From an uncultured Desulfospira sp. (GTDB taxonomy: Bacteria > Desulfobacterota > Desulfobacteria > Desulfobacterales > Desulfobacteraceae), in the NCBI GenBank assembly GCA_963663165.1, contig OY760175.1, forward strand, positions 5,248,001 through 5,312,000: a stretch of 64,000 bases of DNA, in the 5' to 3' direction. Positions within the stretch are counted from its first letter, which is position 1. Each line of letters opens with the position of its first letter. A program made the position numbers and the translations under genes. This document shows, piece by piece, positions 11,948-18,572 of this stretch. The notes beneath the pieces are model-generated. The model saw only the letters and a program-made list of their open reading frames with translations, was not told the origin of the DNA and ran no database searches.

Positions 11948-13209
11948 CCTGTATCGGTATGAAACTAAAACCCCGGTTCTTCTTATCCATATTTTCGGTC
12001 ATCTCAGGGTTTGTGATTATCTGCAGCCTGTCCGCTTATTTTTATCTGGGGGTCAGGGAATTGAACAAAGTCGATGTCATCTGCCATGAGGCCGTTGGTA
12101 ACCTTAAAACCCTTCAGGTGCTGACAACCAACCTTTTGGTTACAAATGAGCTGGAGCAGGTCTATAGACATTGGAAAACAGCACAACATCAGTTCAAGAA
12201 CAAACTGGTATCCCTTAATGAATCTCCTTATATCCATGCGCTATTAACCACCGTAGAGCAGCAAAGCATCTTGAAGGCAATGGATACTTTCTGGGCCTTT
12301 ACACTGCAAAAGATTGAGCAGGTCAATAAAGACATTGGCACATTGATGAGCCGGAAGAATCCATCCAGAGACGGGCTTATATTTCAATTCAATGATACCG
12401 GTGATTATAACATCCTTAAATACCAGAACGACATTATCAGTGCCAAAACGTTTCTTGAATCAGAGTTTGAACACCGGCTGTCCACATTAATTTTTATTAT
12501 AAATCAGGAAAAAGCAGACCGGCTGCAAGGCCTGTTCTACCAAACCATGGTGGTGGGTTCAATCATGTCTTTGGTTGTTGTTATGATACTGAGCTCATTT
12601 CTAATTCGCCTTAAATCCGCTTTGGACAAACTCCATTCATCCATGGATATTATCGGGCAGGGTGATTTTTCAGAAAAACTTGAGATATCAGGGAACGATG
12701 AACTCAGCCAGATTGCTGTTTCCATCAACCGGACCACTGATAAGCTCAGTGACATGCACGTTGAATTAGAGCAGCGGATAAAGGAATTGTCTATCGCAAA
12801 GGAGAATGCGGACAGAGCGAATCGTGCCAAAAGTGCATTCCTGGCCAACATGAGCCATGAGATAAGAACGCCGCTTAATGCGGTAACGGGGTTTAGTGAA
12901 TTGCTCTCGGATATGGCAAGAGACGAAAAACAGATCAGCTATATATCTGTTATCGCCGGTGATCAAGGTCACCACCTTTGCCGGCAACGAACCGTCCCCA
13001 CCTGTGATATATTGACTTGTCAGGGCTTTTCGCAGGTGTAATATTTGAGGGAAGATACCATTCTCATTTGTATCGATAATTTGCAACACAATCAGCTAAA
13101 ACAAGATATATTAATGGAATAGCGCCATAGCAATCAATTTGGTTGCAGTAAAGCACCTGCGGTTGGAAGAACACGCTCACCAACAGGCGTCAATCCCGAT
13201 TTTGGAAGT

Positions 13210-13249
13210 AAAAAAGCCGGGTTTTATACGAGGACGTATAAAACCCGGC
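13210..13249 (-). terminator. Intrinsic terminator after istB
   Basis: 15-bp stem GCCGGGTTTTATACG/CGTATAAAACCCGGC with a U6 tail on the minus strand. Confidence 0.8.
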
Positions 13250-13265
13250 AGATGTGAAGAGATGG

Positions 13266-14054
13266 TTATTGGGGTATGGACTGGGGATTAGTAGTGTTCG
13301 TTGTGTTGGGACCTTCCGTTCGATAACTGAGTCCGTCCCGGATATTAATGATGTGAACATTGTGCATCAATCGATCGATAATGGCATGAGTTACAACCGG
13401 ATCTCCCAGAGTCGTCCCCCAATCCTCAAGACTGATTGAAGATGTGGCAATAAAGGCGGTATCGTCCTGGCAGACGCTGATCAAATCCAGCAGCAGGCTG
13501 GGATATTCCGGCTTTGTGCGGATACCGCCCACATTATCTATGATCAGAAGATCAAAACGGCTTAAGCCGGCGACCACCTCATCGGTGGATTCGTCAGCCA
13601 ATGACGTATACAGCATGGCCAGAAGTTTTTGCAGGGAAAAAAATCGAACCTTATAACCCGCACGGCAGGCCTGGTCGCCAAGGGCTGAGGCAATATGAGT
13701 TTTGCCCGTGCCGGTTTTCCCAAAAATAAGCAGCGGCTGCTTTCGATCCACAAAGGATAGCTCCATCAGATCTTTGAGGTGCTCTACATTCAGGCTTGGC
13801 TGGAAGTTAAAATCAAAGTTATCAAAGGTCATGTTTCTGGGGAAATCCGCTGTTTTTAGCCGCTTTTCAAGGGATCGGTGCTTTCTTGCCTTCATCTGTA
13901 CGTCCACGATGTCGGCCAGGAACGCCAAATGACCGGATTGATTTTTCTGCGCCTTGGCAAGGGCCTGCTCCAGATATTGGGCCATATCCTTGAGATAAAG
14001 CTTGCGCAGTTTCTTTTTAACCTGGTCGCTTAAGTTTTCATTCATCCTTGCCAT
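13266..14054 (-). CDS. istB: IS21 helper AAA+ ATPase IstB (atypical Walker B)
   Basis: FDNFDFNFQP, GKTGTGKTH, LLIIDNVG, IIDRLMH, GLSYR. Confidence 0.92.
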   Translation of the reverse strand: MARMNENLSDQVKKKLRKLYLKDMAQYLEQALAKAQKNQSGHLAFLADIVDVQMKARKHRSLEKRLKTADFPRNMTFDNFDFNFQPSLNVEHLKDLMELSFVDRKQPLLIFGKTGTGKTHIASALGDQACRAGYKVRFFSLQKLLAMLYTSLADESTDEVVAGLSRFDLLIIDNVGGIRTKPEYPSLLLDLISVCQDDTAFIATSSISLEDWGTTLGDPVVTHAIIDRLMHNVHIINIRDGLSYRTEGPNTTNTTNPQSIPQ

Positions 14055-16360: not shown

Positions 16361-16775
16361 TTGGACCTCCGGCTATATTGAGGCTTTTTTGAAAAATCTC
16401 CCCGATTGAGATAAGGCCACTGCCGCCGGTGGGTTGCTTAGGCGCCTTGGACGTCGGTGCTGCAACATTTTTTTTGGGAAGGGAAAGCACTTGAAACAGT
16501 CGGCCGTCAAAGGCTATGAGATCTTTATCAATGAGCCCGTTCCTGGCCTGGATATATTCGTCCAGGCGGATGGCCGTCAATGAACAGATTTTATCATAGC
16601 CGTAATAAGACATTCCCTGACGATCTGCCACCATCACCAGAAAAAGGTACAGCACAAGCTCCTGGTGGTTCAGGCTGCCCCAATACCCCTGGCGGATAAA
16701 CCGGTGGCTTATCCATGCGAAACTGCCGTTAATTTTTCTAATTCGATGGTCCTTCAACGGTTCCTTGGTAATCAT
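16353..16775 (-). CDS. Winged-HTH-like protein inside the IS
   Basis: AAGGAGG RBS; LYLFLVMVADRQGMSYYGYDKI...ARNGLIDKDLI resembles replication-initiator-type wHTH. Confidence 0.65.
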   Translation of the reverse strand: MITKEPLKDHRIRKINGSFAWISHRFIRQGYWGSLNHQELVLYLFLVMVADRQGMSYYGYDKICSLTAIRLDEYIQARNGLIDKDLIAFDGRLFQVLSLPKKNVAAPTSKAPKQPTGGSGLISIGEIFQKSLNIAGGPND

Positions 16776-17208
16776 TTTTACCCTCCTTGGAAATATAATG
16801 ATGAAAATTGTCGCCTGAATACCGTCTGCCATATCCCCGCCGGGGGAATTGATCTACAATCAGACCTTTTCTTCCGCAAAAACAGCAGCATGGATGGGAA
16901 GACGGAGGCGTTACCCGAAGACTATCATTGGATTTGGAGGGTGTTGAAGTGTCATCATCCACGGTTTTTTGAGAATTTCTTAATCTCCGCTCTTTTTCCT
17001 GCCGACGATGGGCTAACTTACCTTTTTCAGTTTGTCGATATTTCTTCTGGGCGTTACGGTGAGCTTCTCTTTGAGCAGTTTCCCGACAGGATTCACAGCA
17101 ATAAATCTGTCCACGCCAGCAACTGTGGCAGATATAAAAAATGCTGCCGCATCGTTTACACTGGATTTCTTTTAATAAAACGATCTCCACATTTTCCGTT
17201 CTTGCCAT
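16738..17208 (-). CDS. Cys-rich putative zinc-finger protein inside the IS
   Basis: CKRC..CHSC..YCCESC, a basic helix, then CCCFCG. Confidence 0.65.
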   Translation of the reverse strand: MARTENVEIVLLKEIQCKRCGSIFYICHSCWRGQIYCCESCRETAQREAHRNAQKKYRQTEKGKLAHRRQEKERRLRNSQKTVDDDTSTPSKSNDSLRVTPPSSHPCCCFCGRKGLIVDQFPRRGYGRRYSGDNFHHYISKEGKNDYQGTVEGPSN

Positions 17209-18572
17209 AAAACGGAAGCCGTGATTATATGAAGATGTTGGGTAGCTTCCGTATTTTATATGGATGTCTGCTTTTTGAAGGCTCGAAGCGGCCTACTTCG
17301 AGCCTTCCTTATTTTTCAAATCCATCCAAGAAACAAAACCAAATTCAAAGAAAAAAAGGAAGAAAATATATTTTTAAAATATGGGATGAAGAAGAGACAA
17401 AGTAAAAAGGATGGAGGCTTTGTTACCGGCTAAAGGGGTGGCCTGCTTCATCGCCATAGGTGGGGACGGTTACGACCGGCGGTAACAATATATCCGCTAT
17501 AAAGCACGCTGGGGAAAGCCTGCTGACACTGATCAATGACATTCTGGACCTGTCCAAAATAGAGGCAGATAAACTTGAAATAAAATATACCTATTTAAAT
17601 ATTAAAAAACTTCTGGATGAAGTGGAACAGATCTTTGCGGTCCAGTCGGCAGATAAGAATCTTTCTTTTATGATTGATATCAGCCAGGACCTGCCGGATA
17701 CCCTTCTGTTAGATGAGATCCGTTTAAGGCAGGTGCTTTTCAATATAGTCGGCAATGCAGTTAAATTCACACACAAAGGGTATATAAAGCTGTCGGCCCG
17801 TGTTGCCGTGAAAAAAAATGACCACATTGATATGCTGATATCGGTTGAGGATACGGGTGTGGGAATACAAGAGGATGAACTTGAATGTGTTTTTGATGCA
17901 TTTAAACAAAGCTTGGGGCAGGATTCATCAACATTCGGGGGAACCGGGCTGGGGCTGACGATTTCAAAAAGACTGGTTAAAATGATGAACGGGCAAATCA
18001 GGGTAAAGAGTAAACCCAATTCCGGAAGCGTATTTTCCATCACCCTGAAGGATGTTGAATTCAGCCGTGACCCGGTACGATCTGTCCGAGGGTATGCATG
18101 TGACCCGGTAAAATTCAAATCCCGTAAAATTCTGGTGGTCGATGATGCAACATCAACCACTGATTTTCTCAAGGCACTTCTTGGCAGATCAAACCTTGAG
18201 GTGCAAACGGCCGAAAACGGGAAGGAAGCTGTTGCCATGAGTGAACAAATTCTGCCGGCAGTCATATTAATGGATATCCGGATGCCTGTAATGGATGGAT
18301 TTGAAGCAGCCCGCATCATTAAATCCAATCCGGTTACCAGGCAGATCCCCATTATGGCTGTCACGGCTTCAAATCCATCCGAGAATTTTTTAAAACCCTT
18401 TGACTCAGTTTTTGATGCGTGGCTTTTCAAGCCTGTCAGAACCCATGAGTTGATTTCTCATTTAAAAAAGTATCTGCCGGTTGAACCCTTTGAATTTGAA
18501 AAGAAAAAGGCCCCATCCTCAAAATCAGAATGGTTTGATTATACGGAAGACAGTTTAAAATCCATATCTGAT

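Follow-up and report, generated by a model that had tools for sequence, protein, structure and literature searches.

An IS21-family transposon of an uncultured Desulfospira with a ParB-family gene directly before istA and a conserved palindrome within that gene

The stretch of DNA analyzed here, hereafter the window, comprises 64,000 nucleotides from the genome of an uncultured Desulfospira sp. (GenBank assembly GCA_963663165.1, contig OY760175.1, positions 5,248,001 to 5,312,000). Positions 12948 to 17487 of the window are an active IS21-family transposon that encodes the DDE transposase IstA and its AAA+ helper ATPase IstB, and this element belongs to a widespread IS21 subgroup in which a gene for a ParB-family protein stands directly before istA. 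The explanation that we favor overall, with a probability of about 0.55, is that the ParB-like protein serves as a cis-acting controller that uses a palindrome within its own gene, and that two additional genes, for a zinc-finger (Zn-finger) protein and a winged helix-turn-helix (wHTH) protein, constitute an exchangeable front end.

The element carries five genes in the order Zn-finger, wHTH, ParB-like, istA and istB, all on the minus strand, with consecutive overlaps of 38, 8, 17 and 17 nt and a single terminator. The start of the wHTH gene was set at the ATG behind a AAGGAGGG ribosome-binding site; the longest open reading frame would begin at 16832. The element and its transcribed features are the following (pLDDT, predicted local distance difference test; HTH, helix-turn-helix).

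12948..17487, genes on the minus strand: whole IS21-family element, 4540 bp, multicopy and with target duplications
16738..17208, minus strand: Zn-finger gene, 156 amino acids, unnamed family, with invariant Cys27, Cys30, Cys37, Cys41, Cys108 and Cys111; structure model with pLDDT 80
16353..16775, minus strand: wHTH gene, 140 amino acids; match to HTH_36 with E 0.0011, under the Pfam cut-off
15524..16360, minus strand: ParB-like gene, 278 amino acids, with a ParB N-type domain containing DGFKR, an HTH and a helical C-terminal part
14038..15540, minus strand: istA, DDE transposase, 500 amino acids; NF033546 at 216.8 bits (cut-off 160), rve and Mu-transpos_C_2 domains
13266..14054, minus strand: istB, AAA+ helper ATPase, 262 amino acids; PF01695 at 6.7e-58, NF038214 at 225.4 bits (cut-off 200)
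13216..13249, minus strand: strong intrinsic terminator after istB, 15 pairs and a T run

The source genome, a single contig of 6.74 Mb, contains five copies of this element, each exactly 4540 bp long and 100% identical, and each flanked by its own perfect 7-bp target duplication (caatgga, atcattt, ctatggg, atatatc and tatcaga; 5/5 copies, far beyond chance). The presence of a distinct perfect duplication at each identical copy indicates that all 4540 bp are mobile as one unit and have moved recently. Membership in the IS21 family is established by IstA and IstB, both of which exceed the cut-offs of the NCBI IS21 models, by TG...CA tips and repeated subterminal sites, which are among the criteria for this family, and by the duplications, whose length of 7 bp falls inside the 4-8 bp range of IS21 elements. 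Thus, what an earlier reading of this DNA from its sequence only (the sequence-only reading) had proposed about the exact ends, the movement of a 4540-bp unit, the overlapping co-directional genes with one terminator and the IS21 family has been upheld. The features of the ends are as follows.

12941..12947, no strand: target-site duplication ATATATC, left copy
17488..17494, no strand: target-site duplication ATATATC, right copy
12948..12960, plus strand: terminal inverted repeat tip TGTTATCGCCGGT at the istB-distal end, a tip also present in the related elements L062, L065, L069 and L074
17475..17487, minus strand: terminal inverted repeat tip at the gene-proximal end, reading TGTTACCGCCGGT on the minus strand
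12956..12977, plus strand: first subterminal repeat of the istB-distal end, matching the pattern with 0 mismatches
12982..13003, plus strand: subterminal repeat copy 2 at the istB-distal end, 3 mismatches, with a core AACCGTCCCCACCT common to the other end
17458..17479, minus strand: subterminal repeat at the gene-proximal end, 0 mismatches

At the gene-proximal end, ACCGGCGGTAACA is a near-perfect inverse of TGTTATCGCCGGT and finishes at 17487. The subterminal pattern CCGGYNNNMAMSGTCMCCACCT has three matches at up to 3 mismatches, where 0.23 would be expected, and the first copy (12956..12977) is probably a binding site for IstA. An earlier count of two plus three subterminal repeats is only partly reproduced: we recovered two matches at the istB-distal end and one at the gene-proximal end, where one extra degenerate copy and an inverted copy of the tip can be made out by eye.

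The third gene encodes a true ParB-family protein, which has the ParB N-domain fold with its G-x-x-R motif and a ParB-type HTH. Its alignment with Thermus Spo0J (E 1.6e-6) spans both the N-domain and the HTH and places DGFKR opposite GERRY. Among 57 relatives of the protein, HTH_ParB is present in 49 and ParB_N in 27. The structure model of the protein, with a pLDDT of 94.4, was matched by Foldseek to the ParB-CTPgammaS structure 7bnr at 1.4e-10, and Noc and KorB also were matched. Residues D53, G54 and R57 of the DGFKR motif are invariant across the family, and in a set of 30 paired sequences the invariant N-domain positions comprise R17, S30, G35, Q36, D53, G54, F55, R57, K82 and N89. A full HMMER scan yielded 1751 representative relatives at E <= 1e-3, and no ParB-like relative was found in plasmid records. 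A ParA-type ATPase is not among the five genes of the element; IstB is an AAA+ protein and not of the ParA type.

The linkage of this gene to istA was assessed in a scan of one genome per species, which returned 440 ParB-like loci. The best 80 of the 440 were examined and are the basis of the locus counts given here. Judged by their record titles, these 80 loci span at least eight phyla (Thermodesulfobacteriota, Planctomycetota, Acidobacteriota, Myxococcota, Pseudomonadota, Chlorobiota, Fibrobacterota, and two archaeal metagenome-assembled genomes). Where at least 900 nt of sequence is available, the ParB-like gene is followed directly by istA in 74 of 75 loci (L139 is the exception), and where at least 2700 nt is available, istB also follows in 51 of 53 (L123 and L139 are the misses). 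The pattern is mirrored in an IstA tree of 82 rows, from which the IS232 IstA was left out because its match was too short. In this tree, a branch sets apart all 66 ParB-linked IstAs, IstAs that are linked only to a wHTH gene adjoin this group, and IS21 falls outside.

The loci were also sampled by IstA instead of ParB. Metagenome relatives collected in this manner (63-89% IstA identity) have both the wHTH and the ParB-like gene in 6/6 cases, and the Zn-finger gene in 4/6. The closest IstAs from 400 genomes of the phylum reach just 26-37% identity over the matched part, and therefore the loss of the ParB-like gene among close relatives was tested by the metagenome scan. The 400-genome sample added 27 new loci, which comprise 11 with the order wHTH-IstA-IstB, one with Zn-finger-ParB-like-IstA-IstB, and 15 that are bare or cut by a contig end. 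Across 72,556 plasmid records, no IstA is more than 32% identical to the one described here. The complete five-gene unit inside the same tips recurs in L062 (4542 bp), L065 (4543 bp, with a 7-bp duplication) and L069 (4582 bp). An internal deletion is seen in L042 (G206, same family, about 5954-7832), wherein the Zn-finger, wHTH and IstB genes are intact and the ParB-like gene and most of istA are gone. Two archaea-binned contigs, L073 (from a Hydrothermarchaeales genome) and L102 (from a Thermoplasmatota genome), carry the order ParB-like-IstA-IstB, which may reflect either true transfer or a binning error.

These data bear on whether the three extra genes are mere passengers, such as the remnants of a plasmid partition or regulatory module. 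Classical IS21 elements work with istA and istB alone, and the Zn-finger and wHTH genes are variably present among relatives, as would be expected of cargo. However, the ParB-like gene is retained beside istA over at least eight phyla, a ParA partner is absent, the genes overlap within one operon, and the identity of the five copies indicates that the genes are not decaying. We consider the passenger explanation highly improbable. The proposal of the sequence-only reading that the ParB-like gene is core machinery rather than cargo is borne out by its position before istA, by the separation of the 66 linked IstAs and by the six close relatives, none of which lack the gene. The refuting condition named in that reading, close istA relatives devoid of the extra genes, thus fails. 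With 440 loci, the ParB-bearing subgroup is common, and its members are likely to be annotated merely as an IS21 transposase accompanied by hypothetical proteins.

A second conserved feature of the subgroup lies within the ParB-like gene itself. It is listed here with a related half-site.

15863..15879, no strand: parS-like palindrome GGTTGCAGcCTGCAACC in the ParB-like gene, codons 161-167
13141..13148, plus strand: isolated GGTTGCAG half-site in the 3' non-coding region; the other two exact matches in the window are the palindrome arms

The outer arms of the palindrome, (G)GTTGC...GCAAC(C), are conserved over 81 ParB-like genes. The codon for Leu162 is TTG in 81/81 of these genes, while the other conserved Leu columns have TTG in only 3 to 24 of 66-77 genes, and Leu162 is the sole single-codon column among 46 conserved degenerate columns. 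Likewise, Asn166 is encoded by AAC in 73 of 76 genes. A perfect spacer-free palindrome of 16-18 bp is present in 29/81 genes with four different centers, and these centers vary in a compensatory manner, wherein paired base changes alter the encoded residues as well (P-A-G, Q-R-C, P-R-G). In the clade of the window, the right arm is held in a shifted frame, such that A-T replaces C/G-N and the near-invariant Asn is lost. In 36/81 genes, no other inverted repeat has arms as long as those of the palindrome, and in 10 more its arms tie for the longest; GTTGC-N5-6-GCAAC occurs at only one further site in 557,357 nt outside the ParB genes. A distant ParB-like IS21 element (L171) has a 14-bp palindrome at the equivalent position. 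Judged from these patterns of codon use and compensation, the palindrome is kept by selection on the DNA or RNA itself.

Two other candidates were considered and set aside. The GGTTGCAG half-site at 13141 is not significant alone as a second site, given three exact matches versus about two expected in the whole window. Use of the TTG at Leu162 as an internal start codon was rejected because a ribosome-binding site does not precede it and because the compensatory changes at the center would be left unexplained.

The simplest reading of the palindrome is that of a candidate docking site for a dimer of the ParB-like protein. Alternatively, the palindrome might form a hairpin in the transcript, with an effect ahead of istA on the stability, processing or coupling of the mRNA, or it might be bound by IstA or by a host factor. 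In 52/81 genes, the arms are split by 1-8 unpaired bases in the manner of a stem-loop, and in the window a small hairpin with a T run (minus strand, 15872..15858) overlaps the site, both of which are in keeping with a structure that acts in RNA. A loop, however, has no need of the 29 palindromes that are perfect through the center or of four self-complementary centers. Moreover, the site always accompanies a ParB-like gene, palindromes of this length serve as binding sites for the family's dimeric HTH proteins, and in Bacillus subtilis a parS site resides inside the parB (spo0J) gene. On these grounds a purpose unrelated to ParB binding seems unlikely.

In the mechanism that we favor, a dimer of the ParB-like protein would bind the palindrome, which is located some 320 bp upstream of where istA begins, and would control transposition from the donor side, in cis to the element that encodes it. 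From this position inside the operon the protein would limit or time the expression of istA and istB, and a contact with IstA is probable. The protein may be a nucleotide-gated clamp, with DGFKR and several other N-domain residues invariant in the subgroup. The Zn-finger and wHTH proteins would be exchangeable front-end DNA-binding regulators that have been acquired by different transposon types and that lie outside the IS21 reaction itself.

As had been suggested in the sequence-only reading, the complex of the ParB-like protein with IstA was modeled. Three runs gave interaction scores (ipSAE, interaction prediction score from aligned errors) of 0.45, 0.31 and 0.46, and the best of three controls scored 0.00; the partners have pLDDT values of at least 81, and contacts agree by at least 40% between runs. 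These values surpass a mark that is reached by 116/157 solved complexes and by 2/215 mismatched pairs. They also sit in a weak band, wherein passing scores of 0.60 or under were reached by only 18/157 solved complexes and by both of the passing mismatches. The modeling therefore suggests a contact between the two proteins only weakly.

This outcome is relevant to the possibility that the ParB-like protein is purely an autorepressor, that is, a regulator of its operon in the style of KorB or VirB that is bound at the intragenic palindrome, makes no contact with IstA or IstB and has no part in the transpososome. Each element has a single site, within the operon and upstream of istA, orphan ParB-family regulators such as KorB, VirB and BisD are known, and the model suggests a contact with IstA only weakly. 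But a diffusible repressor would have no need for strict adjacency to istA with overlapping start and stop codons, which is maintained in 74/75 loci. The N-domain is also invariant at many positions, and the model did clear its mark, with the controls all at 0.00. We regard a pure autorepressor as somewhat unlikely.

The low band of the interaction score is one of several observations that weigh against a cis-acting ParB-like controller that uses its own palindrome. The ParB-like protein of the window itself has no Pfam match, including to any ParB model. Canonical ParB proteins use a Glu and an Asn of the third ParB box for CTP (cytidine triphosphate) hydrolysis; the alignment with Thermus Spo0J places Tyr and Leu of the ParB-like protein at these positions, and a CTP cycle for this protein is therefore only putative. 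Upstream of the Zn-finger gene, the gene strand yielded no sigma-70-like promoter. The sample of 80 loci is biased, having been obtained through the peptide HKSWV[CS]RR[LI], which corresponds to one common recognition helix, and related sequences in the set are not independent. The branch that separates the ParB-linked IstAs has a support value of 88 (SH-aLRT, Shimodaira-Hasegawa-like approximate likelihood ratio test), which is not decisive, in a tree that held only 16 non-ParB IstAs. To these is added the alternative use of the palindrome discussed above.

A more far-reaching version of the proposal is that a ParB-family nucleotide-gated clamp and its own parS, situated in its gene, constitute a centromere-type module built into a transposon. 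Loaded within the element, the clamp would migrate to the element's ends and, via IstA, govern when they pair or whether a nearby target may be used; the Zn-finger and wHTH proteins would be a toolkit exchanged by DDE transposons and tyrosine-recombinase elements of the RIT (recombinase in trio) type. We offer this version tentatively, as a possibility that is doubtful on balance.

An alternative raised in the sequence-only reading assigns the ParB-like protein to target immunity or target choice, wherein protein loaded on the element spreads to the flanking DNA and acts on IstB to exclude or steer new copies. Clamps of the ParB family slide from their loading sites, element-bound proteins of Mu and Tn7 clear the AAA+ regulator from nearby DNA, and the N-domain motif is invariant, all of which would suit such a function. 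The distribution of the copies points the other way. Two copies are separated by 26.7 kb and 4/5 copies lie inside 320 kb, and thus any immunity would have to be short-range. In addition, one copy has inserted in another mobile element, and the five target sites have no motif in common. A role in immunity or target choice appears very unlikely. The copy that has entered another element, at 5552773, sits in the CHC2 gene of a family-B-like element (see below) in a region dense with mobile elements (G000:C1:5547500-5567000).

The genes at the front of the operon behave differently from the ParB-like gene. The Zn-finger protein, whose family has no name, is marked by six invariant cysteines and by a helical hairpin of basic character, and it matches no Pfam or NCBIfam family above cut-off. 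The Atlas gave unnamed clusters only, and the protein's fold has no Foldseek match at E <= 0.001 and no VIA-align match at Z >= 5 (best Z 4.3, to the helical hairpin only). For the wHTH protein, the nearest Atlas clusters have HTH_36 in 20-29% of members, and no PDB relative was found by sequence. Upstream of the ParB-like gene in the 58 loci with room, a Zn-finger gene is present in 41, a wHTH gene in 10, both in 9 and neither in 16.

Homologs of these two proteins also are found in three other multicopy families of the same genome. Family B (4278 bp, six copies, for example G000:C1:1874151-1878428, L009) has the order Zn-finger homolog (57% identical), CHC2 (DnaG-type) zinc-ribbon protein, 184-amino-acid protein, 582-amino-acid protein and AAA_22 ATPase. 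The 184-amino-acid protein has a weak match to a Borrelia replication/partition family; it was rejected as a relative of the ParB-like protein, with an hhalign probability of 2%. For the 582-amino-acid protein, neither Pfam nor a sequence search of PDB gave a match, and hhalign did not relate it to IstA; family B is classed as an element of unassigned transposase type. Family C (4722 bp, four copies, G000:C1:2716656-2721377, L010) encodes a 202-amino-acid Cys-rich protein, a wHTH homolog (57%) and three tyrosine recombinases, and it also bears a SEC-C/TPR gene on the opposite strand. Family D (about 4238 bp, eight copies, G000:C1:2833221-2837458, L011) encodes Zn-finger (42%) and wHTH (46%) homologs followed by three tyrosine recombinases. 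In families C and D, all three of the adjacent, overlapping recombinase genes have a Phage_integrase domain, with best E-values from 1.2e-17 to 7.5e-30. Both families fit RIT elements, as defined by three tyrosine recombinases in PMC3414803. The genome is rich in insertion sequences, and many other multicopy repeats (for example, units of about 2363 bp in 10 copies, 2706 bp in six and 1903 bp in three) are located near copies of families B, C and D.

Because Zn-finger and wHTH homologs head RIT and family B elements, these proteins are best viewed as exchangeable front-end parts and not as an IS21-specific core. The portion of the sequence-only reading that counted them among the core machinery is consequently not upheld in that form, as much of the ParB-bearing group can dispense with them: they are present in only 41/58 and 10/58 of the loci, respectively. 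The distribution of the wHTH family is in agreement. Its homologs are found in 26/400 other genomes of the phylum, and in 20 contexts the gene that follows encodes IstA (whole or as a fragment) in 15, RitA in one and other proteins in four; a ParB-like gene is present in 0/20. In a wHTH tree, the three RIT-linked rows do not form a clade, and its well-supported branches still permit one origin. Exchange of the wHTH gene between element types is suggested by these sequence relationships. In L076 (3878-4345), L092 (9174-9626) and L056 (2505-2948), a wHTH homolog is present after istB and perhaps belongs to a neighboring element.

The remaining features of the locus are a hairpin near the gene-proximal end and the gene that the insertion has divided.

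17277..17307, plus strand: hairpin with 12-bp arms upstream of the Zn-finger gene, terminator-like for the plus strand only
11959..12947, plus strand: interrupted histidine-kinase gene, 5' part; the frame resumes past 17487
17488..18593, plus strand: interrupted histidine-kinase gene, 3' part

The hairpin would halt antisense or read-through transcripts before they exit the element. The gene split by the window copy encodes a hybrid histidine-kinase/response-regulator, and contigs of public run X4 with identical flanks carry the same insertion. Runs X4 and X11 contain contigs with variants that are 90-99% alike over the entire element, and some of their contigs end exactly at 12948 or 17487 and have different sequence beyond, which fits further insertions elsewhere.

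We found no account of ParB in IS21 elements in the literature, with ISfinder outside the search, and to this extent the earlier suggestion of an undescribed IS21 architecture remains tenable. What is new is the five-gene IS21 form with a wHTH gene, the occurrence of its front genes in RIT elements as well, and the intragenic palindrome. IS21 serves as a model for transposases under the direction of an AAA+ partner, and a conserved third partner from the ParB family would add a layer of control. It would likewise extend ParB-type switches, which act in segregation and in the control of plasmid and virulence genes, to transposition. The protein and its site make up a self-contained unit that is small and directly testable. 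Finally, Zn-finger and wHTH proteins occur in IS21, in RIT and in a third type of element, which hints at a pool of accessory regulators moving among unrelated mobile elements.

Compared with canonical IS21/IS232 elements (annotated examples L142 and L143), the element has the same succession of an IstA DDE transposase and an overlapping IstB AAA+ ATPase, and it has the TG...CA tips, repeated subterminal sites and short target duplications (7 bp in this element). The usual IS21 layout, which is descriptive and not defining, is two genes in roughly 2-2.6 kb. In L142 and L143, istA is about 1.2-1.3 kb and istB about 0.75-0.8 kb, whereas the element described here has five genes in 4540 bp, among them a ParB-like gene that is conserved and contains a palindrome.

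Orphan ParB proteins (KorB of RK2, Noc, VirB and BisD) provide the closest parallel for the protein itself. The resemblance includes the fold, as detected by Foldseek for ParB, Noc and KorB, the combination of an HTH with a G-x-x-R N-domain, the lack of a ParA partner and a candidate palindromic site. Unlike these proteins, the ParB-like protein is the product of an insertion-sequence gene that is coupled to the gene for a transposase. Each element has a single candidate site, which lies in the protein's own gene, and the Glu and Asn of the third box are not kept. The parS site in spo0J of B. subtilis is similar in that a candidate site palindrome resides in the coding sequence of its own reader, shortly past the HTH. 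That site serves chromosome segregation with ParA and SMC, whereas a segregation context is lacking here.

The left end of phage Mu, where the regulators c and ner precede the transposase A and the ATPase B and where an internal operator/enhancer is located, is similar by layout only: small DNA-binding regulators come before a DDE transposase and an AAA+ ATPase, and there is an internal site. The regulator families are unrelated, and the element described here is not a phage. Lastly, families C and D resemble RIT elements in their three adjacent, overlapping tyrosine-recombinase genes. Described RIT elements are about 3.5 kb long and contain ritABC only (PMC3414803); families C and D differ from these in their length of 4.2-4.7 kb and in that they open with homologs of the Zn-finger protein, the wHTH protein or both from the IS21-family element of the window.

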